From Candidatus Parvarchaeota archaeon (lineage in GTDB: Archaea > Nanobdellota > Nanobdellia > Parvarchaeales > Parvarchaeaceae): DNA of 64,000 nucleotides. This document shows, piece by piece, positions 844 to 63,933 of this stretch (positions are counted from its first letter, which is position 1; every line of letters starts with the position of its first letter). Location: NCBI GenBank assembly GCA_025920305.1, contig JAPDMB010000001.1, positions 538 to 64,537 of the forward strand. Reading direction: 5' to 3'. The position numbers were made by a program, and so were the translations under genes. The notes beneath the pieces were generated by a model, which saw only the letters and a list, made by a program, of their open reading frames with translations, did not search any database and had not been told where the DNA came from.

Positions 844-871
844 ACTATATTGGAAAATATATTAACTATTT

Positions 872-1204
872 ATGCGTATCAATTCAAGTTTTGGTATGGG
901 TACCGTACAGCATATTGATTTTATAACGGATAGGTATGACATTGATTTGAATGCGATATTCCAGAGAATAATCGAGAAGAACCATAAGAAGGTTGCCATT
1001 CAGCTTCCAGATGGTTTCAAGCGGCATGCTCTAGAGATGGCAAAAGCTATCTCTGAGAATACAGGCGCAGAGGTCTTTATATGGGGCGGGAGCAATTATG
1101 GCGCCTGCGATATACCTTATGGATTAGAGAAATTTGGAATAACCCTCCTTATCCAGTTTGGACATGCTAAATTCAGGGCAGATAACAGGGCCGATGGAAA
1201 ATGA
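872..1204 (+). CDS. dph2: diphthamide synthase Dph2, N-terminal domain only (split-gene fragment, 110 aa)
   Basis: The motifs VAIQLPDGF...EVFIWGGSNYGACD...LLIQFGH match domain 1 of archaeal Dph2 (cf. P. horikoshii Dph2 VLIQSPEGL...GEINYGACD...LIHLGHS), including the first cluster-ligand Cys. The ORF then stops and overlaps rnhB in another frame. Confidence 0.65.
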   Translation: MRINSSFGMGTVQHIDFITDRYDIDLNAIFQRIIEKNHKKVAIQLPDGFKRHALEMAKAISENTGAEVFIWGGSNYGACDIPYGLEKFGITLLIQFGHAKFRADNRADGK

Positions 1205-1859
1205 AGTCGTCATAGGGATAGACGAAGCGGGCAGGGGGCCGGTCATAGGCCCGATGGTGGTGGCCGGCGTGAGCCTTGATCCTGATCTGAACAGACGGTT
1301 TAAGGCAGCAGGGGTGAAGGATTCTAAGATGTTGAGCATAAGGAGGATATACCAGCTGGAAAGGATAATAAAGGAATTCAGCTTGGGCTTTAAAGTCATC
1401 GTAAGAACTGCGGCGGAGATAGACGACAGATTCAAGGCTAAGAAGAACCTAAATTATTTTGAGCTGGATGATATGTCTGATATAGCCAACTCGTTACAGG
1501 GGAAGAAAGTCATAGTGGATTCACCCTCTGCGAACGTCGCAAAGGTGAAGAGCTATCTTGAGAGGCGGGTAAAGGACAAGGAGATAATCGCTAGAAATTA
1601 TGCAGACCGGGATTTTGTAGAGGTGGGAGCTGCGTCGATACTCGCGAAGGCTCAGAGGGAGAGAGAGGTGGAGGCGATAAAGAAAGAACTGTCGTATGAT
1701 TTTGGGAGCGGATACGCCTCGGATCCAAGGACCATCGAATTCCTGAAGATAATAAAGGATAATGGCAGGATATATGATGAGCCATACTCCAAATACATAA
1801 GGAAGACCTGGTTGACGTTCAAAAACCTCACCAGGAAGAGCCTGAATGATTTTACCTAG
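1158..1859 (+). CDS. rnhB: ribonuclease HII
   Basis: VIGIDEAGRGPVIGPMVVAGV is the classic RNase HII active-site block. Length fits, about 220 aa. The true start is probably at MENEVV, position 1194. Confidence 0.9.
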   Translation: MDMLNSGQITGPMENEVVIGIDEAGRGPVIGPMVVAGVSLDPDLNRRFKAAGVKDSKMLSIRRIYQLERIIKEFSLGFKVIVRTAAEIDDRFKAKKNLNYFELDDMSDIANSLQGKKVIVDSPSANVAKVKSYLERRVKDKEIIARNYADRDFVEVGAASILAKAQREREVEAIKKELSYDFGSGYASDPRTIEFLKIIKDNGRIYDEPYSKYIRKTWLTFKNLTRKSLNDFT

Positions 1860-2248
1860 TTTATACGGTTTTTCAGTTCGTCCGGGATAGGCTTGGCTTT
1901 CCACGCCTTTGGGTCTATACAGACCTGTGTGATATACCCCTCAGCAGCAAGCTTTTCCCCGCTGAAGACACTGAAGTCGAATCTTATCGCAGACTTTGAT
2001 ATAATGTTCATATTCATATGTATCTCCAGCACATCGCCCAATTTGACGGGTCTATGATATGTGGCTTTAGATTCGACCGTGACAAACCACGTGTCCTTGC
2101 TTATCTCTGACAGATAATTCCCAAATTTTGACCTAGAGTAATCTTCAAGCGTATCGGTGAAGAACCTATAGTAAGCCGCATAGTGCACGACGCCCTGCGC
2201 GTCGACGTCGTATATTCTTACAGTCTCTTTTTTGATAAATGTATCCAT
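1856..2248 (-). CDS. acyl-CoA thioesterase, hotdog fold (YbgC/4HBT-like)
   Basis: YDVDAQGVVHYAAYYRFF matches the 4HBT thioesterase motif. Start chosen at MDTFIKK (2248) because the longer ORF (to 2323) would overlap the divergent mre11 start. Confidence 0.7.
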   Translation of the reverse strand: MDTFIKKETVRIYDVDAQGVVHYAAYYRFFTDTLEDYSRSKFGNYLSEISKDTWFVTVESKATYHRPVKLGDVLEIHMNMNIISKSAIRFDFSVFSGEKLAAEGYITQVCIDPKAWKAKPIPDELKNRIN

Positions 2249-2287
2249 GTTACAAGTATAAAAATCAGCTGGATATAATATAAAGTT

Positions 2288-3460
2288 ATGTCTTATAGAT
2301 TTATTCATACCGGTGACACGCATATAGGCAACGTATACAAAGATAGCCAGAGAAACAATGACATTAAAGATGCGTTTATACAGCTTATAGACTACGCAAT
2401 AGATTCAAAGGTCGACTTCATAGTTCATTCCGGTGATCTATTCGACAGCGGTACACCAGATATAAACGATCTGCTGTTCATGACAGACCAGCTGCACAGG
2501 CTTAAAGACAATAATATAAAGATCTTCACTGTGCCAGGCTCTCACGATGTAGGCATAGGAGAGGAGCTTAGCATCGTTGATCTATTCGATAGGAATGGGC
2601 TCCTTGTAAATCTTAATTCAAGCAGATACATGAGGATGGAAGGCGGTAAGGTATACCTGAAAGGCGCTACATACCTAAACGCCTTCATAGCAGGGGTAAG
2701 GGGGAAAAGAAGCCGCGTAGAGGACGAGATATTCAAAGTGTTAAGCGTGGAGATGGATCAGAATGCATGGATTAAGATATTCGTCTTCCACCATACCATC
2801 TCTTCTCTAGGCGAAGCATTCAGCGATTTGGATACTGACAGCCTGCCCAAAGGCTTTGATTACTACGCAGCCGGTCATTGGCATGGCCATAAAGACAATA
2901 TTCAATATGGTAGTGGGATAATACAATACCCAGGCTCCACGGAGTACTGTGATGAGAAGGAGATGGTTGACAACCCAAACAGGGGGTTCTACGTAGTGGA
3001 GTACTCTGAGGGCGGTATAACTAGTGTGGAGTATCACCTCCTGAAGACGAGGGACAAGGACATAATACGTATAAACGCAGATGGTAAGGATTCTAAATCC
3101 ATAAAAACTGAGATCGTCTCGAATCTAAAGGAAAATGACGGTAAGATGCTGGTTATACTTGTAAACGGTAAACTCAATGGCAAGAGATCTGAGTTGGATA
3201 CGCAGGATATAAAATTACAGGCTAAGTCACTTGGATATTCATATGTCAGCATAAATACCTCTAAGATGCTAGATTCTGATTCGGACACTATAACTTTGAA
3301 GAGCGAGAACATAACGGATATAGAAGATGAATTTTTGTCGGCAAAAGGCTATAATAAAAAAGAGATAGCCCTCGCTCATACAATAATAGATATGATCGAG
3401 GAAGGCAAGGATCTAAGTGGCGTGAAATCCAAGGTTTTGGAGTTATATGATAATCAATGA
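2288..3460 (+). CDS. mre11: DNA double-strand break repair nuclease Mre11
   Basis: Calcineurin-like phosphoesterase motifs HTGDTHIG, HSGDLFD and GSHD. Immediately followed by rad50 with overlapping stop/start. Confidence 0.9.
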   Translation: MSYRFIHTGDTHIGNVYKDSQRNNDIKDAFIQLIDYAIDSKVDFIVHSGDLFDSGTPDINDLLFMTDQLHRLKDNNIKIFTVPGSHDVGIGEELSIVDLFDRNGLLVNLNSSRYMRMEGGKVYLKGATYLNAFIAGVRGKRSRVEDEIFKVLSVEMDQNAWIKIFVFHHTISSLGEAFSDLDTDSLPKGFDYYAAGHWHGHKDNIQYGSGIIQYPGSTEYCDEKEMVDNPNRGFYVVEYSEGGITSVEYHLLKTRDKDIIRINADGKDSKSIKTEIVSNLKENDGKMLVILVNGKLNGKRSELDTQDIKLQAKSLGYSYVSINTSKMLDSDSDTITLKSENITDIEDEFLSAKGYNKKEIALAHTIIDMIEEGKDLSGVKSKVLELYDNQ

Positions 3461-5837
3461 AATCAGCCTAAAAAACATCAGAAGTCACGTCGAATCAGAG
3501 ATATCGTTTAGCCCCGGGATAAATGTGATAGTGGGCAATACTGGGAGCGGAAAGTCGTCCATACTTATGAGCATAGAGTATGCACTGTTTGGAAAGATAG
3601 GAGAAGGTACAAATGAGGGCAAGATGCTTTTAAGGAGGGGCGAAAACAGCGGAAGAATATCTTTAGTGTTTACTGAAAACGGTAGGGAAATAAGAGTCAT
3701 GCGGGGGCTTAAGCGCGTAAAAGATGCCGTTAGGAACGATGACTCTATGAATAGCATATCCGTAGACGGCAGGGAAGTCGATCTGCAGAACAGATCATCC
3801 GACATAAGCACCTTTGTATCGAAAAGTCTCTCAATGAAAAGTGATCCTTTGAAAACGTTTGAGGCGGTCGTATACATAAAGCAGGATGAGCTTAAGGGTT
3901 TAGTCTTTGATACAACGCAGAAAAAACAAGAATACATAGACGACACTTTGCAAGTAGGGAAGTATGCCCTTGTGTACGATGGTATGCGGTCCCTGATGAT
4001 AGACTTACAGAATGAAGAAGCCCTCCTAAAGAAAGAGATAGAATTCTCCGTGGGAGACAAGGAGATAATAGAGACAAAAAGCAAGCTGCTGGATATAGAG
4101 AAGAATATTAAGAAGCTGTCTGACGACATAAACCTCCTAGAATCGAAGAGTGATGAGCTTGCGAAGGCCAGGAGAGCCTATGAGGAGAAGCTGGAAGCCG
4201 AGAAGGATCTGCAGCTGAAGTTCAATGTCTTGCGATCGTTGATAGATAAAGAAGCTAAAGAATTGGAGAAGCTGAAAGAAAGCGTGAAGGATCTACAGGT
4301 TGAGAGGGATCTTCTGTACGACAGAGTAAAGGACATGAAGCAAGAGGATGAGGGTGAACTCTTAAATAAACTTCATGAAATTGATAAGCTGGCAGACGCA
4401 TGCAATAAAGAGAAGGATATCCGGATAAAAGAGATGCATGAGTTGCAGATGAGGATAAGTGTACTTAATGATAGAAAGGGGAAAATAGAGGAAGAACTTA
4501 AAAAATACATAAAATATGTGGATGAAATCAGTAAATTAATCAGTGAGAAAAAAGCGGCTCTCGATGAAGCGAAAGTCCTTTTAAGTGATGATGAGATAAA
4601 CGCAAAAATCGAGCAGATAAAGGAGGTGATATCGGATATCACAGCGGACATGGAGAGGTCTATATCTAGCGGCATCTGCGTGTTCTGTGGATCTAGTATA
4701 ATAGACAGGCAGCACGTGGAGAAAGAATTCAAAGGGAGAATAAACGGATATAATCAGACCATATCGAAATTACAAGGGTTGAAATCGAATATATCAAAGA
4801 TCTCCAAGGCCAGTTTAGAGAAGGAGCTATTCTCTTTGGAGAAGGACATGTTGAATGCAAAGACCACCATAGATAATTTAACTAAAGAGTCGGATTCCAT
4901 ACATACAAGCGATCTAAGTTCTCAGCTTGAGAAATTTGAGACGGAACTGGACAAGCTGAAGCAGGAGCAGACAAGCCTTTCCGATGAGAAGCTAGAGATA
5001 GCCAGAAAATTGGAGGAGATATCAAAATCAAGGGCATTGTTCATGAAGCTGTCATCCATCGATTCAGAGATAGAACAGCGGTTGAAATTGATAGGAGATA
5101 AGGAGTCTAACATCGAAAAGAATAGATCAGATTTGAAGGACCTTAATTTCGATCCATCAATCTACGCAGGGCTTATGGATGAACTGAAACTCGTAGATGA
5201 AGATTATAATAAAGTTATATCGCAGCTAGCCGAGAGCAGAAAGGAGAAAGCGATGCTGGAAGAGAGGAGATCTGAGGAGAATGCCAGGCTTGAGGAAATA
5301 AAGAGCAAGCTAGAGACGAAGGAGAAGGCAAATTCGAAGCTGGTAAAACTCGAAAAGGCGATTAAAATGCTGTCTAATCTCCGAGAGGATATAAGGAGCA
5401 TAAGGGAATACGTGAGAAACAGGTTCATAGGCGATTTCAGGTCCTTATTTCAGACAAAATTCTACGAGCTTAGGAATGAGACTGACTACGCCGTAGACAT
5501 AGACAACAACTATAATGTTATAATAAAAAGCGACGGCGAAGTCTTTGAGTCAAAAAGCCTCTCCGGAGGGGAAAAAACCATAGTGGCTTTGGCTTATAGG
5601 ATCTCTCTGTCCTCCATAGCTGCGAAGTTGGGCGGGATAAGCCGTAACGAGATATTCATAATGGACGAACCGACGTCCGGCCTAGATAAAAAAGATGTCT
5701 CCTCTTTAGCCGACTCAATAACTAAGATAACTGGCGTGAATCAGATAATAATCGTAACGCACGATGATAACCTTAAGAATATAGCCGACAACATGATACG
5801 TGTTGAGAAAAAGGAAGGCGTTTCCGTGGTGATTTGA
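3447..5837 (+). CDS. rad50: DNA repair ATPase Rad50
   Basis: Walker A GNTGSGKSS. Long heptad coiled coil with a central CxxC zinc hook (CVFCGS). ABC signature LSGGEKTIVALAYRISL and Walker B IFIMDEPTSGLD. Confidence 0.92.
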   Translation: MIINEISLKNIRSHVESEISFSPGINVIVGNTGSGKSSILMSIEYALFGKIGEGTNEGKMLLRRGENSGRISLVFTENGREIRVMRGLKRVKDAVRNDDSMNSISVDGREVDLQNRSSDISTFVSKSLSMKSDPLKTFEAVVYIKQDELKGLVFDTTQKKQEYIDDTLQVGKYALVYDGMRSLMIDLQNEEALLKKEIEFSVGDKEIIETKSKLLDIEKNIKKLSDDINLLESKSDELAKARRAYEEKLEAEKDLQLKFNVLRSLIDKEAKELEKLKESVKDLQVERDLLYDRVKDMKQEDEGELLNKLHEIDKLADACNKEKDIRIKEMHELQMRISVLNDRKGKIEEELKKYIKYVDEISKLISEKKAALDEAKVLLSDDEINAKIEQIKEVISDITADMERSISSGICVFCGSSIIDRQHVEKEFKGRINGYNQTISKLQGLKSNISKISKASLEKELFSLEKDMLNAKTTIDNLTKESDSIHTSDLSSQLEKFETELDKLKQEQTSLSDEKLEIARKLEEISKSRALFMKLSSIDSEIEQRLKLIGDKESNIEKNRSDLKDLNFDPSIYAGLMDELKLVDEDYNKVISQLAESRKEKAMLEERRSEENARLEEIKSKLETKEKANSKLVKLEKAIKMLSNLREDIRSIREYVRNRFIGDFRSLFQTKFYELRNETDYAVDIDNNYNVIIKSDGEVFESKSLSGGEKTIVALAYRISLSSIAAKLGGISRNEIFIMDEPTSGLDKKDVSSLADSITKITGVNQIIIVTHDDNLKNIADNMIRVEKKEGVSVVI

Positions 5838-36970: not shown

Positions 36971-37879
36971 ATGTTCTGTCAGATATGCGGTAAGGAAGCG
37001 GTCATATCGTCTGCCAGCGGTACGTTCTGCAGGGAGCATTTCCTGGACTATTTTGAGGATGCTGTTTTAGAGACCATCTCCAAGTACAGCCTCATAAATC
37101 CGCATGAGAAGATCGTAGTTGCGAATTCTGGAGGGAAGGATTCTCTGTCCTTGCTTTACGTGCTGAATAAATTCTTTAGAAATACAAACGACATACTGTC
37201 TGTGACTATAGATGAAGGAATCAAAGGCTATAGAGATAAGACGATAGACATAATGAAACATTATTGCGAGGCATGGGGTATAAAGTATAAAATATACTCT
37301 TATAAGGATTTCACAGAAAAGAGCATGGATGAGCTTACGAAGATAAGGCACGGTATACCATGTTCGTACTGCGGAACATTGAGGAGGTACCTGCTCAACA
37401 AAGCTGCACTTGAAAACAATGCGGACAAGATGGCGACAGCGCATAACCTTGACGATGAAGCTGAGAGCGTCCTAATGAACTTGATACAAAATGACAATAG
37501 TCGATTTTTGAGGATCGGTGCGAACGTAGGGTTTGTAAACGACGATAAATTCATCCCCAGGATAAAACCGCTTATGTTTATAAGTGAAAAGGAGACTATG
37601 ATGTACTCTATAATGATGGGCATAAATGCTATCCACTCTGAATGCCCTTATGCAAAGTTCGGGATACGTAGTACGGTATCGGAGATAGTGAAGGAGATAG
37701 AGACTTCACATCGAGGTGGAAAGAGAAATATCGTGGAATGCGCGCTGACAGTTGCAAACAGCTTAAGAGGCGTCGCAGAGCGCAGAGAACTGAATAGGTG
37801 CCGCATATGCGGAGCGCCATCATCTAAAGAAGTATGTGAAGCTTGTTCAATAAAATTGTCTTTAAAGATCAGTATATAG
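36971..37879 (+). CDS. ncsA: tRNA 2-thiolation protein (TtuA/NcsA/Ncs6 family)
   Basis: N-terminal CxxC...C..H zinc finger (CQICG...CREHF), PP-loop VANSGGKDS, central CSYCG, C-terminal CRICG...CEAC. Confidence 0.8.
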   Translation: MFCQICGKEAVISSASGTFCREHFLDYFEDAVLETISKYSLINPHEKIVVANSGGKDSLSLLYVLNKFFRNTNDILSVTIDEGIKGYRDKTIDIMKHYCEAWGIKYKIYSYKDFTEKSMDELTKIRHGIPCSYCGTLRRYLLNKAALENNADKMATAHNLDDEAESVLMNLIQNDNSRFLRIGANVGFVNDDKFIPRIKPLMFISEKETMMYSIMMGINAIHSECPYAKFGIRSTVSEIVKEIETSHRGGKRNIVECALTVANSLRGVAERRELNRCRICGAPSSKEVCEACSIKLSLKISI

Positions 37880-45759: not shown

Positions 45760-46485
45760 ATGTATTTCATAATAGATGTCATGGAACCTACATCTTTCAG
45801 GGTCAGCAGTGGAATAACAGGCTTCGATCAGCTTGTAAATGGCGGTTTGGTGTCAAATACCGTCTCAGCGCTTTTCGGCTCCCCTGGCGCAGGGAAAAGT
45901 ATATTCGCCCTTAGCTTTCTAAGGGCTGGATTGAAGGAAAATGAGAAGGTGTTCTACATCAGTTTAGAGCAGGACTTGGATGCAATACTTAGGGAAGCGG
46001 ATTCTCTTGGTTTTACTGAGTTTAGGGAGAACATGAACACAAACTTCGTTTTCGTTAGGATGACCGGCCACGATTTCAAGGAGTTCTTACTTGTGGATCT
46101 GCCAAAGATATTAGAAAGCAGGACTGGAAAACATTCAAGGATAGTCGTGGATCCGTTGACACCGCTGTTCTGGGAAATCCATGATATAGCGATGCAGAGG
46201 AATCTTTTGAGTAATGCCTTCGATATGCTTCGCTCATTTGGCACGTCTATCGTCACGGTAGAAAAATATGGTAATCTAAACGTGCTGGACTTATCAGAGG
46301 AGCTGGCCATACCGCTATATTTGTCGGACTGTGTGATATTGCTCACGATGATATTCAATCAAAACTTCTATCAAAAGGCCATATCCATCCTCAAGTTCAG
46401 ATATTCCTCCCACAGTTCAGGCTTGCACCCCTTCGATATAGAGCAGGGTGGGATAAAGATATTCCAGGACCAGCCTGTCTTCTGA
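45760..46485 (+). CDS. KaiC/RecA-superfamily ATPase (RadB/KaiC-like)
   Basis: GFDQLVNGGL...ALFGSPGAGKS Walker A in the RecA-like arrangement. 241 aa. Confidence 0.7.
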   Translation: MYFIIDVMEPTSFRVSSGITGFDQLVNGGLVSNTVSALFGSPGAGKSIFALSFLRAGLKENEKVFYISLEQDLDAILREADSLGFTEFRENMNTNFVFVRMTGHDFKEFLLVDLPKILESRTGKHSRIVVDPLTPLFWEIHDIAMQRNLLSNAFDMLRSFGTSIVTVEKYGNLNVLDLSEELAIPLYLSDCVILLTMIFNQNFYQKAISILKFRYSSHSSGLHPFDIEQGGIKIFQDQPVF

Positions 46486-46490
46486 GAGGC

Positions 46491-48398
46491 GTGGATATGA
46501 AAGTAAAGTTCAGAGATAAGATTTACGAATCGAATGAGAGAAGCTCTTTCTTGAAGCTCGCGGAATCAGTCGGCATAGATATAAAAGAGGTAATAACTGT
46601 AAAAGCGGGTGGTAAACTATTCGATTTATCCTCAAGTGTCCCGGATGTAAACGAAGTCGAGTTCCTAGATTTCAATAGCCCAGAGGGGAAGATGGTATTT
46701 TGGCATTCATCTGCGCATATCTTGGCTGACGCGGTAAAGCGTCTGTATCCCGAGGCTTTATTGGGTATAGGTCCTCCAATCGACGGAGGTTTTTACTATG
46801 ATTTTTATAATCTAAACATAGGAGACAATGACCTTAAAAGGATAGAGGAGGAGATGAAGGCGATCTCGAAGGAGAATAATAAGTTCGAGAGGATACCATT
46901 GACAAGGGAAGAGGCCGAGAAGAGACTAAGTGGAGAGAGGTTCAAACTTGAGATATTGAATGACCTGACAGGTGAAATAACACTTTATAGAGATGGAAAA
47001 TTCGAGGATCTATGCAGGGGGCCTCATATTCTATCAACAGGGGCGGTTAAGGCGGTAAAGCTCCTTAAGGTATCAGGCGCCTATTGGAAGGGGGATAATA
47101 AGCGCGAGTCCATGACTAGAATATACGGCATAACTTTTCCTTCAAAAGAGGAGTTGGATGAATATCTCAAATTCTTAGAGGAGCGAAAGGCACATGACCA
47201 CAAGAAGATAGGCAGAGAATTAGAATTGTTCGAATTTTTAGATGTATCGCCAGGTTCTCCTTTCATGCTGCCAAAAGGGACGATAATCTACAATGAACTT
47301 GTCAAACTTGCAAGAGAATACGACACTAAATATGGCTATCAGGAGGTAATAACTCCCTTCATCGCGAAGGTCGATCTTTGGAAGATAAGCGGGCATTTTG
47401 ATAAATATAGAGAGAATATGTTTGAGGTCAAACCATTTGAATCCGATGAAGAATACGCTTTGAAGCCGATGAGCTGCCCATTTCATGTACTAATATTTAA
47501 ATCGAAGACACGTAGTTACAAGGAACTTCCTCTTCGGATATCTGAGCACGGCATAGTGCATAGGTACGAACTGGAGGGGGCGCTGGATGGTCTTTTAAGA
47601 ACAAGGGTGCTGCAGCAGAATGACGCGCATGTCTTCGTCAGCGAGGATCAGATAGAGGATGAGATACTGTTCGAACTGAAAGAACTCAAAGAGATATATG
47701 AGATATTTGATCTATCTCCAGTATTTATCGCTGCTACAAGGCCTGATAAAAGGATAGGGGAGGATGAGCTTTGGGATAAAGCGGAGAATGCAATCTTCAG
47801 AGCGCTTGAAAAGGCCGGCTATAAGTACACCATTAAGGAAAAAGACGGGTCATTTTATGGACCGAAGATAGATATATATGTCCTTGACTTTACAGGCAAG
47901 CCGGAAGCGGCTTATGCTGTGTCGACGATACAGGTAGACTTCAATTTAGCCAGAAGGTTTGATGCAAAGTACACCGGGAAGGACGACAAAGAGCACATAC
48001 CTGTCGTGATACACCGCTCAATACTAGGCTCCTTTGGCAGGTTTATGGGGGTAATACTTTCGAATTCTAAAGGCGAGCTTCCGTTATGGCTGTCTCCAGT
48101 GCAGGTAAAAGTGCTGCCTATAAGTGACAGCAATAAGCCGTATGCCGAGGAGGTTGCGGAAAGACTAATGAAGGATAAAATAAGGGTTGAATTGGATGAA
48201 TCAAATTCGACATTGGACAGAAAAATACGCACTTCTCAGTTGGAGAAAGTTCCATACACGGTTGTGGTAGGCGAGAAAGAGGAAAAGAGTAAAACTATAG
48301 CAGTTAGGGATAGGTCAGGCAAAACCAGTTATAATGTAGATTTAAGTAAGTTTATATCGGATTTGACGGAGAAAATCAGGCTAAGGTCTAAAGCTTAA
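46491..48398 (+). CDS. thrS: threonyl-tRNA synthetase
   Basis: Class II motifs (FRALEKAGYKY..., HRSILGSFGRFMGVIL), N-terminal archaeal editing/TGS region, C-terminal anticodon-binding domain. 635 aa. Confidence 0.92.
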   Translation: MDMKVKFRDKIYESNERSSFLKLAESVGIDIKEVITVKAGGKLFDLSSSVPDVNEVEFLDFNSPEGKMVFWHSSAHILADAVKRLYPEALLGIGPPIDGGFYYDFYNLNIGDNDLKRIEEEMKAISKENNKFERIPLTREEAEKRLSGERFKLEILNDLTGEITLYRDGKFEDLCRGPHILSTGAVKAVKLLKVSGAYWKGDNKRESMTRIYGITFPSKEELDEYLKFLEERKAHDHKKIGRELELFEFLDVSPGSPFMLPKGTIIYNELVKLAREYDTKYGYQEVITPFIAKVDLWKISGHFDKYRENMFEVKPFESDEEYALKPMSCPFHVLIFKSKTRSYKELPLRISEHGIVHRYELEGALDGLLRTRVLQQNDAHVFVSEDQIEDEILFELKELKEIYEIFDLSPVFIAATRPDKRIGEDELWDKAENAIFRALEKAGYKYTIKEKDGSFYGPKIDIYVLDFTGKPEAAYAVSTIQVDFNLARRFDAKYTGKDDKEHIPVVIHRSILGSFGRFMGVILSNSKGELPLWLSPVQVKVLPISDSNKPYAEEVAERLMKDKIRVELDESNSTLDRKIRTSQLEKVPYTVVVGEKEEKSKTIAVRDRSGKTSYNVDLSKFISDLTEKIRLRSKA

Positions 48399-48939
48399 TC
48401 TCCTCATCTACGAAGCTTCTGACTTTGTCTATAAATGCAGAATCTAAACCGTCGTCGCTCATCACAACAAACACCGTCTTCTGCTTCTTTTCATGCGTCA
48501 AAGAAGAGATGTAGTGTATAAATCTGAGCATCTCGTTCTGCGAGTTGTAGATCGAAAAAGAGGTTATAGAATCTATAAATATGAATAAATTTTTCTCCAA
48601 ATTTATCATATTCTCCAGGTTTATACTCAGCCTCGTTAGATCAGCAGGCGAATCTAGCACTATTATATTTTCGCTAGGCTTTGGTATCTTCCTATAAAGC
48701 GAGCTTGTTATAGTGTCTATAATCTTGTATTTTTTTATACCAGTGGATGATAATTGGCTTTCAATCGTATCCCCAGGGACGCTTCCCGTGACATAGATCG
48801 GCATGAAGCCCATGCTGTTGATATTATTGAAGATATAATTAAAGTTGTCGTTTAATTTATCCCTTTCGTTAAGGAGTAGAAGGCTTACATTCGAATTTAT
48901 CAGCCTTTTGATGCTGTTAGTTATATCATCTCCATTCAT
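48388..48939 (-). CDS. KaiC/RecA-like domain protein with degenerate Walker A
   Basis: Composition and layout look like a KaiC-like fold (IYVTGSVPGDT where a P-loop would be). No GK[ST]. Confidence 0.4.
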   Translation of the reverse strand: MNGDDITNSIKRLINSNVSLLLLNERDKLNDNFNYIFNNINSMGFMPIYVTGSVPGDTIESQLSSTGIKKYKIIDTITSSLYRKIPKPSENIIVLDSPADLTRLSINLENMINLEKNLFIFIDSITSFSIYNSQNEMLRFIHYISSLTHEKKQKTVFVVMSDDGLDSAFIDKVRSFVDEEIKL

Positions 48940-48988: not shown

Positions 48989-49071
48989 CGCTGGGAATGG
49001 GATTCGAACCCATGCATCCTTTCGGAAACAGGCTCTCCAAACCTGCGCCGTAACCGCTTGGCTATCCCAGC
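48989..49071 (-). tRNA. tRNA-Ser (anticodon GGA)
   Basis: Reverse complement: acceptor GCTGGGA/TCCCAGC, discriminator G. 3-bp D-stem. Anticodon stem CAGGT/GCCTG with loop TTGGAGA. Long variable arm (TCC-GAAA-GGA). T-arm ATGGG-TTCGAAT-CCCAT. Confidence 0.8.
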
Positions 49072-49100: not shown

Positions 49101-49790
49101 TCAATTATTTAAATAATCTCTTAGATCTTCAACGTTCACTATCGGCTTTTCCAGCTTATCCATATCGTCGATGGCAATCCTTTGGCATGCTGTATTTATG
49201 AAGACATCCACATCTCTAAACTCGTTCAGCCTTTGAAAGTTTATCTCATCGAACACAATCGTATATACCTCTACGCCTCTCTCTGCAAGTTTTTCTTTTA
49301 TATCCTTTGCACCAGCCGTCTGCCCTGACTTTATCGACTCTACGAACATGACCTTCTTAGCATTCAAGGCGATGCCTATGGCCTGCATCATCCTTTTTTT
49401 GTAATTTTGTACGAGCTTCTCGTCCATCTCCTCTATATTCTCATTTTCTACGTCAACATTTATCACCTTCTTTTCAGTCTTCATAAGGACACCCATTATA
49501 TGGAACATACCCTGCGTAAAAGCCAGGATCACATCGCAGTCATCGCATTCTGCGGCATATTGATCGCATCCAAGTATCTGCCCCGGATACGCGGCTCTGT
49601 ATTTGGAAGAAAGCAGGACGAACTCTTTGTCTTTTATCTTATCTTTCACATAAGCCATCTGATCTAAATATTGTATCACTCCAATCAAGTTAACCTTTTT
49701 GTATGGTTTTAGCTTCTCCTTTATTCTCTCCAAAAGCGCATCGCTTATCTTCCCCTTATACCTCGATTCTACAAACATAGTTTCCATCAT
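49101..49790 (-). CDS. dph2: diphthamide synthase Dph2, C-terminal two domains (split-gene fragment, 229 aa)
   Basis: Aligns from the domain 1/2 boundary to the end of archaeal Dph2: FVESRY...ISDALLERIKEKL, AAYPGQILGCD (second cluster Cys, cf. WPGQVLGCN), VFINTACQRIAIDD (third Cys, cf. VVVACPRVPLDD). The N-terminal domain is the ORF at 872..1204. Confidence 0.7.
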   Translation of the reverse strand: MMETMFVESRYKGKISDALLERIKEKLKPYKKVNLIGVIQYLDQMAYVKDKIKDKEFVLLSSKYRAAYPGQILGCDQYAAECDDCDVILAFTQGMFHIMGVLMKTEKKVINVDVENENIEEMDEKLVQNYKKRMMQAIGIALNAKKVMFVESIKSGQTAGAKDIKEKLAERGVEVYTIVFDEINFQRLNEFRDVDVFINTACQRIAIDDMDKLEKPIVNVEDLRDYLNN

Positions 49791-49844
49791 GTGTTTAATG
49801 TATTAGCAAATATTTATAAATAGAGATACATTTAGAATCAGCAT

Positions 49845-50213
49845 ATGGAAGCGAAGCTAGTGTTAAATGATCCGTCTACGGAAAAGTCATACAGCCGGGT
49901 CATATCCAATGAGGAGATCGATAATCTGCTTGGATTGAAGATAGGTGACGAATTCGATATGTCATTTTTAGGATTGGACGGTTACAAGGGCAGAGTAACT
50001 GGTGGAAGCTACATGACAGGCACTCCTATGGATAAAAGCATAGACGGCACCGGATTGAAGAGGGTGCTCAAGGTCTTAAATAAGCATGGGCTGAGAAAGA
50101 GGAAGAGCGTCGCAGGAAATACGATAAGCCAGTTCACCTCTCAGATAAATGTAAAGATAGTTAGTTATGGCAGTAAGAAGTTGGATGAGATTTTCGTGAA
50201 AAATAATGGTTGA
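49845..50213 (+). CDS. rps6e: 30S ribosomal protein S6e
   Basis: KLVLNDPSTEKSY...KIGDEFDMSFLGLDGYKGRVTGGS...GTPMDKSIDG matches the S6e pattern. Confidence 0.88.
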   Translation: MEAKLVLNDPSTEKSYSRVISNEEIDNLLGLKIGDEFDMSFLGLDGYKGRVTGGSYMTGTPMDKSIDGTGLKRVLKVLNKHGLRKRKSVAGNTISQFTSQINVKIVSYGSKKLDEIFVKNNG

Positions 50214-51390
50214 AGATATAATCGTTGATCTCGTAGGTAATTTTGCAGACGGTAAGACTACCCTTGTAAAGGCTCTGACAAACGAATCAGCGCTTAGACA
50301 CAGCGAAGAGAAGAAGAGGGGGATAACCATACGTCTTGGCTATGCGCACTTCAAGCTTTTCAAATGCAATAGCTGTGGCAAGTTCAGCAGGTTTGAAAGA
50401 TGCGAGTTTTGCGGAGGCAGCACCGAATTGTTCCGCAGGGTCTCAATAATAGATTCTCCTGGACATAGGATGCTGATGACCACTATGCTCAGTGGCATAG
50501 GCTTGGCAGATGGAGCGATTATGGTCATCTCAGCGATAAATCCATGCCCCCAGCCTCAGACTGAGGAGCACATGGAAGCCATAAATCTGTTGGGTATAAA
50601 GAACTTAGTCGTTGCCCAAACTAAAGTGGACTTAGCTGGTGAGTCAAAAGCTAAGGAGAATTACAATCAGATAAGAGCTTTCTTGGAGAAGAATGGATTC
50701 TCAAATACGAATATAATACCGACTTTTGCCAATCAAAATATAAACATCCAAGAGATAATCCAGGAGATCGGTAAATTTGATATCTCTAACAGAGACGTCA
50801 GCGGGAAGCCTAAGATGCAGGTTATAAGGAGCTTCGATGTGAATAAGCCAGGCACGAGGATAGAGGATCTGAAAGGCGGTGTTTTGGGAGGCGGGCTCGT
50901 TTCCGGTAGGCTTTCCGTAGGCGATGAAGTGGTCTTAACTCCAAATGTTTCGGCAGGCAGTAAATTCAAGTCTATAAGAACAAAGATCATGTACATACAG
51001 AGCGAATTCGGTGAAGAAAAATCCGCTACAAGGGGGCTGTCCATCGGAGTCCTAACCAAATTAGACCCATCTATAGTAAGGAGAGACGCCTTAGTTGGGA
51101 GTTTGATCACCGACGCCGACAACTTGCCAATTCTTGATAATAAGCTGCGGATGACATATGATCCTATACCAGGCAAGACCATATTTGATAAACCTCTTCA
51201 AAAGGGGGAGAGCATACTTATAAACGTTCTGTCTTCCAGAGCGATCGGGATAATACAGGACATCTCTAAGGGAGGGATATCGCTGGTTTTAGGCGAGGTT
51301 TCCATACCTTTCTTTACGGGCGATAAGGTGATAGTATCCAGAAAGGTAAAGAATGCATGGACATTGGCTGGCTCTGGCATAATTTTATGA
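50206..51390 (+). CDS. translation initiation factor aIF2 gamma subunit
   Basis: G domain (GNFADGKTTL, DSPGH, QTKVD). Zinc ribbon CNSCGKFSRFERCEFCGG inserted in the G domain. Domains II/III follow. Confidence 0.9.
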   Translation: MVEDIIVDLVGNFADGKTTLVKALTNESALRHSEEKKRGITIRLGYAHFKLFKCNSCGKFSRFERCEFCGGSTELFRRVSIIDSPGHRMLMTTMLSGIGLADGAIMVISAINPCPQPQTEEHMEAINLLGIKNLVVAQTKVDLAGESKAKENYNQIRAFLEKNGFSNTNIIPTFANQNINIQEIIQEIGKFDISNRDVSGKPKMQVIRSFDVNKPGTRIEDLKGGVLGGGLVSGRLSVGDEVVLTPNVSAGSKFKSIRTKIMYIQSEFGEEKSATRGLSIGVLTKLDPSIVRRDALVGSLITDADNLPILDNKLRMTYDPIPGKTIFDKPLQKGESILINVLSSRAIGIIQDISKGGISLVLGEVSIPFFTGDKVIVSRKVKNAWTLAGSGIIL

Positions 51391-63267: not shown

Positions 63268-63933
63268 ATGGACTCTCTTGCAGTCGGCATAGATTCCTTC
63301 GATAAGGTTGTCGGGGGGATACCAATGCATAGGAATTACCTGCTCAATGGATCGAAGGAGAGTGGGAAGGACCTATTCGCTTATCATCTTACGCTGTCAG
63401 CCCTGGCTAATAAGGTCGGTGTGATCTATATAACCTCCAGTAAAAGTGCAAGTGACCTTCTATCTAGCTTCTCCCTGAGGAATATAAATATATCCCAATA
63501 TCTTGGGAATTCGCTCAAAATAGTGGATAACTTCATCAGAAACATCCAGCCGGATGCGAAGGATAACGCCTACACAAGGGTATTGAACGGACCGTTGGAT
63601 TTGACAGGCCTTGCTGTGGCGGTGTCATCGCTGAACAGCGATTTCATAAAGGATGGGAAGACGACCATCAATATCTTCGATTCTGTGTCCTCCCTGCTTC
63701 TATCCAATAACTCAAACACCATCTTCAGATTTTTACAGTTCATATGCGGCAAGTCAAAGATATCCGGCGTTACCAGTCTGTTTTTAATAGACAGTGATAT
63801 GCATCCCCCGGATATCAATGAGACTATAAAGTCTCTGATGGATGGGGTCATAAATCTTAAGTTAGAGAATGGTGTTAGATATTTCACTTTTACAGGGACT
63901 GAGAAGGAGGTGCTCAATTGGACGCAGTTATAA
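63268..63933 (+). CDS. KaiC-like / FlaH(ArlH)-like RecA-superfamily protein with a non-canonical P-loop
   Basis: GIDSFDKVVGGIPMHRNYLLNGSKESGKDLFAYHL: RecA/KaiC-type layout with the P-loop reading GSKESGKD (Asp in place of Ser/Thr). 221 aa, similar in size to archaellum FlaH. Confidence 0.5.
   Translation: MDSLAVGIDSFDKVVGGIPMHRNYLLNGSKESGKDLFAYHLTLSALANKVGVIYITSSKSASDLLSSFSLRNINISQYLGNSLKIVDNFIRNIQPDAKDNAYTRVLNGPLDLTGLAVAVSSLNSDFIKDGKTTINIFDSVSSLLLSNNSNTIFRFLQFICGKSKISGVTSLFLIDSDMHPPDINETIKSLMDGVINLKLENGVRYFTFTGTEKEVLNWTQL

Follow-up and report, generated by a model that had tools for sequence, protein, structure and literature searches.

Complementary pieces of Dph2 encoded by two separate genes in a Candidatus Parvarchaeota archaeon

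The division of Dph2 between two genes is an already known feature, as the reports by Narrowe, Dombrowski and Podar make clear. In their passages on Dph1/2, Narrowe et al. (2018; PMC6143161) describe the DPANN protein as split into separate NTD and CTD genes; the halves were concatenated for phylogeny and the use of dph2 as a completeness marker was discouraged, and in the legend of Fig. 1 the single DPANN footnote marks these archaea only as having the split, and not as lacking the EF-2 motif. The corresponding passages of Dombrowski et al. (2019; PMC6349945) report split Dph1/2 in Parvarchaeota, Pacearchaeota, Woesearchaeota and Altiarchaeota. For the Yellowstone nanoarchaeote Nst1 a split Dph2 (Nst 222 and Nst 440) is listed by Podar et al. 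(2013; PMC3655853), who give the protein as absent from N. equitans. For the undivided enzyme, the [4Fe-4S] ligands of PhDph2 are Cys59, Cys163 and Cys287, one per domain (PMC11048331), and the SAM pocket of CmnDph2 is formed by Gly158, His180, Gln237, Val265, Arg285, Asp289 and Asp290 (PMC10669111).

The two genes considered here lie in a stretch of 64,000 nucleotides from a Candidatus Parvarchaeota archaeon (contig JAPDMB010000001.1 of GCA_025920305.1), the whole of which is called the window in the following. They are members of the same phenomenon, in the same phylum-level group, as the split Dph1/2 of DPANN archaea (PMC6143161, PMC6349945). The split Dph2 of Nst1 is likewise encoded by two unlinked genes in a reduced DPANN genome, but differs in lineage.

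The two Dph2 pieces of the window

The two open reading frames, named C-half and N-half according to the part of Dph2 that they match, are the following:

49101..49790, minus strand: C-half of the split Dph2, with the predicted last β-strand of domain 1 and domains 2 and 3 (PF01866, TIGR03682, 6bxm, 6q2d)
896..1204, the frame opening at ATG 872, plus strand: N-half of the split Dph2, with the first three β-strands of domain 1 together with the first Fe-S cysteine (PF01866 1-58)

The sequence-only reading had taken the ORF at 49101..49790 for the C-terminal two-thirds of Dph2 and had named a profile alignment as one check; the alignment upholds the family membership and points to no different family. 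Indeed, the C-half matches PF01866 (Diphthamide_syn) over positions 64-288 of 302 (E 6.2e-39, 134.6 bits, cut-off 33.2), the archaeal Dph2 equivalog model TIGR03682 (arCOG04112) from position 72 to 297 of 308 (153.5 bits) and the domain model TIGR00322 with 124.8 bits (cut-off 35). It is aligned by HMMER to residues 93-308 of the Dph2 of Ca. Methanoperedens nitroreducens (6bxm), and also to residues 94-318 of that of Methanobrevibacter smithii (6q2d). The protein has 229 aa from the first ATG (49790) and 228 aa from the second (49787), the latter being the start of the identical public protein P0001; the nearest species representative is Ca. Acidifodinimicrobium mancum, with 85% amino-acid identity to the C-half.

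The same reading had assigned to this ORF a partner, an N-terminal Dph2 fragment at 872..1204, and this assignment is borne out. The N-half supplies positions 1-58 of PF01866 (E 1.4e-11, 44.8 bits, cut-off 33.2) and 1-66 of TIGR03682 (58.9 bits), reaches 73.9 bits with TIGR00322 (cut-off 35) and is aligned to residues 4-85 of 6bxm. Its length is 102 aa from ATG 896 and 110 aa from ATG 872; the former start is the more likely one, and is common to the homologues P0057, P0059 and P0060. The profile and structure matches of both ORFs lie far beyond chance. Neither half alone passes the TIGR03682 cut-off of 202.8 bits, which is exceeded by their sum (153.5 + 58.9 = 212.4), and their coverage of this model is complementary and without overlap (1-66 and 72-297 of 308). 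The two ORFs, whose genes are 48 kb apart, cover complementary parts of a chain that is single elsewhere, and the profile coverage confirms that together they would make up one complete Dph2; an HMM search of all window ORFs found no further Dph2-like ORF besides these two.

Break point, fold and catalytic residues

The N-half ends with ...LLIQFGHAKFRADNRADGK and the C-half begins with M(M)ETMFVESRYKG. In full-length relatives, the segment from the GH motif to the h-[FY]-h-E strand forms a loop of about 8 to 20 residues, whose length and sequence both vary. The break falls in this variable loop, between β3 ('FGHA') and β4 ('MFVESR') of domain 1, with the true domain 1/2 boundary about 10-14 residues further downstream. 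The strand that follows the break is located as follows:

49761..49781, minus strand: predicted fourth β-strand of domain 1 and proposed docking strand, residues 4-10 TMFVESR (AF2 model, hhalign)

A model of the whole protein was obtained with AF2 from an artificial single chain, N(102)+C(228), and an alignment of 147 rows that includes full-length homologues; it was used in place of a single-sequence prediction of the fused halves, whose pLDDT was 42. The model has a pLDDT of 94.2 and a pTM of 0.89, and its sole internal dip in confidence (mean 74) is at residues 91-100, which correspond to the junction. It displays the three-domain α/β fold of the solved Dph2 structures: Foldseek superposes it on M. 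smithii Dph2 (6q2d_A) with TM 0.87 and rmsd 2.1 Å and on the other Dph2 structures with TM 0.80-0.86, the next non-Dph2 match having E 0.02. Since the chain is artificial and full-length homologues are present in the alignment, these values speak for compatibility with the fold and not for the association of two chains.

DSSP assigns to domain 1 of the model β1 (32-36), a helix, β2 (59-62), a short helix, β3 (84-88), a loop, a β-strand at 104-108, which corresponds to MFVESR of the C-half, and a helix at 118-128; this pattern of strands and helices recurs two more times in the chain. When the three internal repeats are compared by hhalign, 'METMFVESR' pairs with 'KKVINVD' in repeat 2 and with 'KPIVNVED' in repeat 3, each of which is the last strand of its repeat; the E values are 7e-5 for D1-D2, 1.4e-5 for D2-D3 and only 0.018, a weak score, for D1-D3. 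The register of the repeats is shown again by the N-half HMM, whose best match in several full-length proteins is in domain 2 or 3 and not in domain 1. Thus, because the MFVESR strand has its counterpart in the fourth strand of domains 2 and 3, the C-half is predicted to supply the last strand of domain 1, and E8, close to its N-terminus, is invariant in all eight aligned split C-halves. On this point the sequence-only reading has to be corrected: it had placed the start of the C-half at the domain 1/2 boundary and had left it without any part of domain 1, whereas the break precedes the last strand of that domain, which is retained at the N-terminus of the C-half. The strand order, that is, the topology, and the weak repeat alignments suggest that this first strand may pair with the sheet of the N-half.

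The residues expected of the catalytic centre are distributed over both pieces:

1106..1108, plus strand: Cys79 (110-aa numbering) of YGACD, first [4Fe-4S] ligand, in the invariant G-x-C-D of the N-half alignment
49566..49568, minus strand: Cys75 of GQILGC, second [4Fe-4S] ligand, invariant and aligned with a ligand Cys of CmnDph2
49185..49187, minus strand: Cys202 of NTACQRIAIDD, third [4Fe-4S] ligand, invariant in the alignment
49536..49547, minus strand: extra Cys82-x-x-Cys85, 7 residues after the ligand Cys75, specific to Parvarchaeales

Cys79 of the N-half is the equivalent of Cys59 in P. horikoshii Dph2, and all three cysteines of the Dph2 family are present and invariant, one in the N-half (YGAC) and two in the C-half. 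The earlier assignment of the second and third cluster-ligand cysteines to the C-half therefore stands, with Cys75 in GQILGC and Cys202 in NTAC. Because one ligand is on the N-half and two are on the C-half, the cluster site would comprise both polypeptides. The predicted SAM pocket is instead wholly within the C-half: by HMMER alignment with 6bxm, in which the chain index equals the residue number + 4, the CmnDph2 pocket maps to G74, H97, Q157, an Ile in place of Val, R204, D208 and D209. In the alignment of C-halves G74, H97, Q157 and D208 are invariant, and R204 and D209 near-invariant. Gly74, a SAM-pocket residue, adjoins Cys75, and Arg204, Asp208 and Asp209 follow Cys202. The extra CxxC is found in 49 of 51 Parvarchaeota C-halves, as against one of the 118 other Dph2 cluster representatives that carry QxLGC.

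Gene contexts, conservation and distribution

The neighbours of the two genes are the following:

48989..49071, minus strand: tRNA-Ser(GGA) (ARAGORN), 29 nt downstream of the C-half stop and on the same strand
49791..49844, no strand assigned: divergent intergenic region of 54 bp between C-half and rps6e, from reading of the sequence
49845..50213, plus strand: rps6e (PF01092, E 6e-25), divergent neighbour of the C-half
50206..51390, plus strand: aIF2-gamma (domain matches), directly after rps6e
1194..1859, plus strand: rnhB, for RNase HII (PF01351, E 1.4e-38)

The C-half is thus flanked, as had been claimed, by tRNA-Ser and rps6e, and the promoter-like context of its own that had been attributed to it is recognizable in the 54-bp divergent spacer. 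Here a palindromic TATA-like TATTTATAAATA is found at 49809..49820, about 25-30 nt from the ATGs of both the C-half and rps6e, and close relatives retain TTTATAAATA or ATTTATA upstream of the C-half. The palindrome may be a promoter element serving both genes, and its spacing would be compatible with transcription in both directions that yields leaderless or near-leaderless transcripts. A bacterial promoter/terminator scan was set aside, the host being an archaeon. As for the N-half, an A/T-rich stretch, AAAATATATTA, lies at 853..863, about 35-40 nt upstream of ATG 896. At its other end, the rnhB ATG (1194) precedes the N-half stop by 11 nt; this overlap of the two ORFs makes it probable that they are co-transcribed and translationally coupled. 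The same overlap is annotated at loci L087, L088, L089, L093 and L095, and one of 20 nt at L001. These distinct surroundings imply separate promoters and unrelated neighbours for the two genes, whose expression, as the sequence-only reading had already proposed, would have to be coordinated in trans.

The synteny of both halves is kept at about 60% identity. In close relatives, the order is N-half, rnhB, a 4HBT thioesterase on the opposite strand, mre11 and rad50, and in a relative at 63% identity the order N-half-rnhB-mre11-rad50 is kept without the thioesterase. The position of the C-half beside rps6e-aIF2γ is kept at 63% identity (L002, L003) and is not kept at 53% identity. Identical halves with identical neighbours are present in several independent assemblies, and the proteins P0001 and P0057 are labelled Candidatus Parvarchaeota archaeon; the window is matched by the 140 kb contig JAVYWT010000001.1 of GCA_038877375.1.

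A word-indexed search found in Parvarchaeota 51 clusters of C-halves, of 226-242 aa and 52-100% identity, and 21 clusters of N-halves, of 95-117 aa. With one genome counted per species, the C-half is present at about 38 Parvarchaeales-type loci; at these the stop-to-stop frame barely exceeds the ORF, which places an in-frame stop shortly before the C-half, and the surrounding ±10 kb contain no N-half. Both halves were found in one and the same assembly in GCA_015121965.1 (C-half at L007, N-half at L093) and in GCA_023269965.1 (C-half at L041, N-half at L095). Both are under strong purifying selection: comparison of the window with relatives at 80-89% identity gives pN of 0.06-0.12 and pS of 0.72-0.89, the latter saturated, with pN/pS of about 0.1-0.15 for both halves. 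The two pieces are therefore kept, and kept under selection, across related genomes.

The split extends well beyond this group. When 1.84 billion cluster representatives were scanned in full by HMMER with the split C-half profile, 1823 matches were obtained, and among the best 149 of these, with the query's own cluster excluded, 118 are of 171-258 aa; most of these 118 split representatives start at profile position 1 with M-x-x-h-F-[IVL]-E. With the N-terminus profile, the best 120 matches are all stand-alone proteins of 77-132 aa; with the original Parvarchaeota set left aside, 108 of them remain, each of which has the G-x-C ligand motif and ends 3-26 residues past the GH motif. Named sources of N-halves outside Parvarchaeota include Altiarchaeota and Woesearchaeota. 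Split C-halves are also present in MAGs labelled Woesearchaeota, Nanoarchaeota and Nanoarchaeia, and dph2 is full-length in Micrarchaeota, Aenigmatarchaeota, Nanohaloarchaea and Fermentimicrarchaeum. In a rough NJ tree of the C-regions, which has short deep branches, the split forms make two groups with full-length forms between them.

Proposed enzyme, alternative explanations and known systems

The explanation that we hold with considerable confidence is that the C-half is the larger subunit of a naturally split Dph2, which would be assembled with the N-half and act on EF-2. The enzyme would be a radical-SAM enzyme of non-canonical type, moving the 3-amino-3-carboxypropyl group of SAM onto the diphthamide His of EF-2. 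Its ancestral single dph2 gene would have been broken in the surface loop of domain 1, between β3 and β4, and the pieces would now belong to separate transcription units, the N-half placed before rnhB-mre11-rad50 and the C-half, probably monocistronic, divergent from rps6e-aIF2γ. The two polypeptides would join non-covalently, with the N-terminal strand of the C-half completing the β-sheet of the N-half and the [4Fe-4S] cluster presumably held by Cys79 of the one and Cys75 and Cys202 of the other; if the homodimer of archaeal Dph2 is taken as the analogue, (N·C)2 might be the active form. The homology of the two pieces, their complementarity, their conservation under purifying selection and their separate gene contexts are direct observations, and their recurrence in about 38 species, with halves never within 10 kb of each other, argues, together with the selection, for a working two-gene enzyme; physical assembly, cluster sharing and activity on EF-2 are what these observations suggest.

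The substrate and the other genes of the pathway were looked for nearby. No EF-2, Dph5 or Dph6 was found in the window or in 95 fetched loci; the search consisted of a Pfam scan of the largest and the size-appropriate window ORFs and of a search for the motifs HRGxxQ, ExYTS and SGGKDS in all ORFs of the window and of loci L001-L086. An ORF at 36971..37879 (302 aa) has SGGKDS at about residue 55 and was taken for another PP-loop ATPase, not for Dph6. In the contig beyond both window ends no EF-2 was seen, the genes found there being those for ribosomal proteins, SecY, PCNA, fibrillarin/Nop and GatDE.

Other explanations of the two ORFs can be considered. It is unlikely, though less so than the other alternatives, that the C-half works without the N-half, either alone or with another partner, Cys82-x-x-Cys85 replacing the first ligand and the N-half having drifted to a role linked to rnhB, mre11 and rad50. 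This alternative would agree with the near restriction of the CxxC, close to Cys75, to the Parvarchaeota C-halves (49 of 51) and with the unrelated neighbourhoods of the two genes; but the N-half retains the invariant G-A-C-D and GH motifs under purifying selection, the split lineages that have no CxxC (labelled Woesearchaeota and Altiarchaeota) retain N-halves with the Cys, and without domain 1 there is no obvious function for the conserved strand with which the C-half begins. That both ORFs are pseudogene remnants, left by a dph2 decaying in a reduced genome on its way to losing diphthamide, is very improbable. DPANN genomes are indeed reduced and some archaea, N. equitans included, have no Dph2; however, in about 38 species, with identities as low as 52%, both ORFs are intact and have constant lengths and invariant catalytic residues, and the low pN/pS with saturated synonymous sites, that is, the strong purifying selection on both halves, excludes pseudogene status.

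In N. equitans the split DNA polymerase relies on a split intein, and the joining of tRNA halves takes place at the RNA level. This precedent is all that speaks for a covalent rejoining of the Dph2 halves, be it trans-splicing of the proteins through a split intein or trans-splicing of the RNAs, and such a route has hardly any probability here. The N-half continues for about 10 residues past its last homologous position and the C-half has 3-4 residues before its first, which leaves no room for intein halves; none were seen flanking the break at the N-half and C-half termini, and the terminal tails vary in length and sequence among relatives. As for RNA trans-splicing, the 3' region of the N-half and the 5' region of the C-half have no complementary run longer than 6 nt, a length that shuffled sequences equal or exceed. 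The least credence is due to an artefact of assembly or sequencing, for example a chimeric contig or an erroneous frameshift. The sequence does come from a metagenome-assembled genome, but the identical genes and neighbours in independent assemblies exclude this origin, and dozens of species, as well as over 100 protein clusters at 50% identity, show the same split.

A wider evolutionary scheme can be put forward, which is possible but rather doubtful. The gene would have been broken in a single, very old event, precisely at the β3-β4 loop of domain 1, and a large DPANN assemblage would have inherited the break (Parvarchaeales, Woesearchaeales/Pacearchaeales, some Nanoarchaeales and perhaps Altiarchaeota); the product would be a two-chain radical-SAM enzyme, with a [4Fe-4S] cluster bridging polypeptides joined by β-strand complementation, and the CxxC of Parvarchaeales might be a metal or redox site newly acquired once the split had taken place. 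If the fission was indeed a single event, it would provide a discrete character, of the rare-genomic-change type, for ordering deep DPANN lineages. A split dph2 also skews completeness estimates based on single-copy markers and requires concatenated halves for phylogeny, consequences that are already in the literature; the understanding of diphthamide synthesis itself is unchanged by the finding.

With respect to the split Dph1/2 reports, whose passages on the subject (PMC6143161, PMC6349945) give no exact break point, structural logic, gene contexts or selection measures, what is new here is one break point shared by over 100 sequence clusters, the data on selection and synteny, the lineage-specific CxxC and a structural reading, based on the model, in which the last strand of domain 1 would be on the C-half and the cluster site would extend across both chains. 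The archaeal Dph2 homodimers of P. horikoshii (3LZD), Ca. M. nitroreducens (6BXM/N/O) and M. smithii (6Q2D/E) share with the window proteins the fold (TM 0.80-0.87), the Cys ligands and the SAM-pocket residues, but are single chains of 330-340 aa, whereas the chain of the window is interrupted in the β3-β4 loop of domain 1. The eukaryotic Dph1-Dph2 heterodimer is likewise a two-gene version of the same enzyme family; however, its subunits are full-length paralogues that arose by duplication and have three domains each, whereas the window genes encode complementary fragments of one chain. Other split genes of Nanoarchaeota, such as those for reverse gyrase, AlaRS, RNA polymerase B and GatE of N. 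equitans, are also products of gene fission, with unlinked halves and a presumed non-covalent association. Many of these Nanoarchaeota splits are limited to one or a few species, whereas the split of Dph2 is found at one site across many lineages.

The Dph2 C-half and its spacer from rps6e

The larger piece of the split Dph2, the C-half, carries next to the second [4Fe-4S] ligand (Cys75, in GQILGC) a further pair of cysteines, Cys82-x-x-Cys85, which sits 7 residues past this ligand. The C-x-x-C is kept in 49 of the 51 Parvarchaeota C-halves, whereas among the other Dph2 cluster representatives it is found in 1 of 118; possible roles are metal binding, redox chemistry or an interface. The gene is divergent from rps6e, and the intergenic region contains a single palindromic TATA-like element, TATTTATAAATA, with each of the two start codons lying about 25-30 nt away; an element resembling it is retained in close relatives. 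The spacer may act as a shared bidirectional promoter, giving rise to leaderless transcripts.

Features of the C-half and its upstream region
49536..49547, minus strand: Cys82-x-x-Cys85 of the C-half
49791..49844: divergent intergenic region between the C-half and rps6e, just 54 bp
49809..49820: palindromic TATA-like element

Split C-halves of the DPANN type are also present in several MAGs named "uncultured Methanosarcinales" or "uncultured bacterium" (loci L062, L065, L082, L083 and L080), where they cluster with Woesearchaeota sequences; these may represent wrong bin labels or mis-binned contigs.

Gene neighbourhood of the N-half

The gene for the smaller piece, the N-half, shares 11 nt with rnhB, after which come mre11 and rad50, the stretch from rnhB onwards covering positions 1194..5837; the order N-half, rnhB, mre11, rad50 is kept down to 63% identity.

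Genes downstream of the N-half
1856..2323, opposite strand: 4HBT thioesterase, between rnhB and mre11-rad50
2288..3460: mre11
3447..5837: rad50

Deoxyhypusine synthase (PF01916) is likewise an enzyme that modifies a translation factor. In the MAG KMA_Bin11 its gene (L095, 1..741) precedes the N-half by about 2.3 kb; this proximity may be a coincidence.

Other genes of the window, its contig and a relative

Three paralogues of the KaiC/RecA superfamily of ATPases are encoded in the window; one of them is short (183 aa) and convergent with thrS, with an 11-nt overlap at the thrS end. Another ORF (302 aa) has an SGGKDS motif near residue 55 or so; the motif and its position suggest that the product is a PP-loop ATPase distinct from the diphthamide-pathway protein Dph6.

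Other ORFs
36971..37879: candidate PP-loop ATPase
45760..46485, 48388..48939 and 63268..63933: KaiC/RecA-superfamily ATPases

Just past the right end of the window, at L090 10701..12303, the contig encodes a protein of 401 aa that matches small GTPases of the Arf/Ras type and adjoins a Roadblock/LC7 protein; the two are an MglA/MglB-like pair. Farther along, a 1245-aa protein without Pfam match adjoins the Nop and fibrillarin genes.

In a Parvarchaeota relative (L001, 823..4100), RNA polymerase subunit B is encoded by two adjoining genes, one for Rpb2 domains 1-3 (492 aa) and one for domains 4-7 (600 aa); the Dph2 N-half is only a few kb away. A two-gene subunit B is frequent among archaea.
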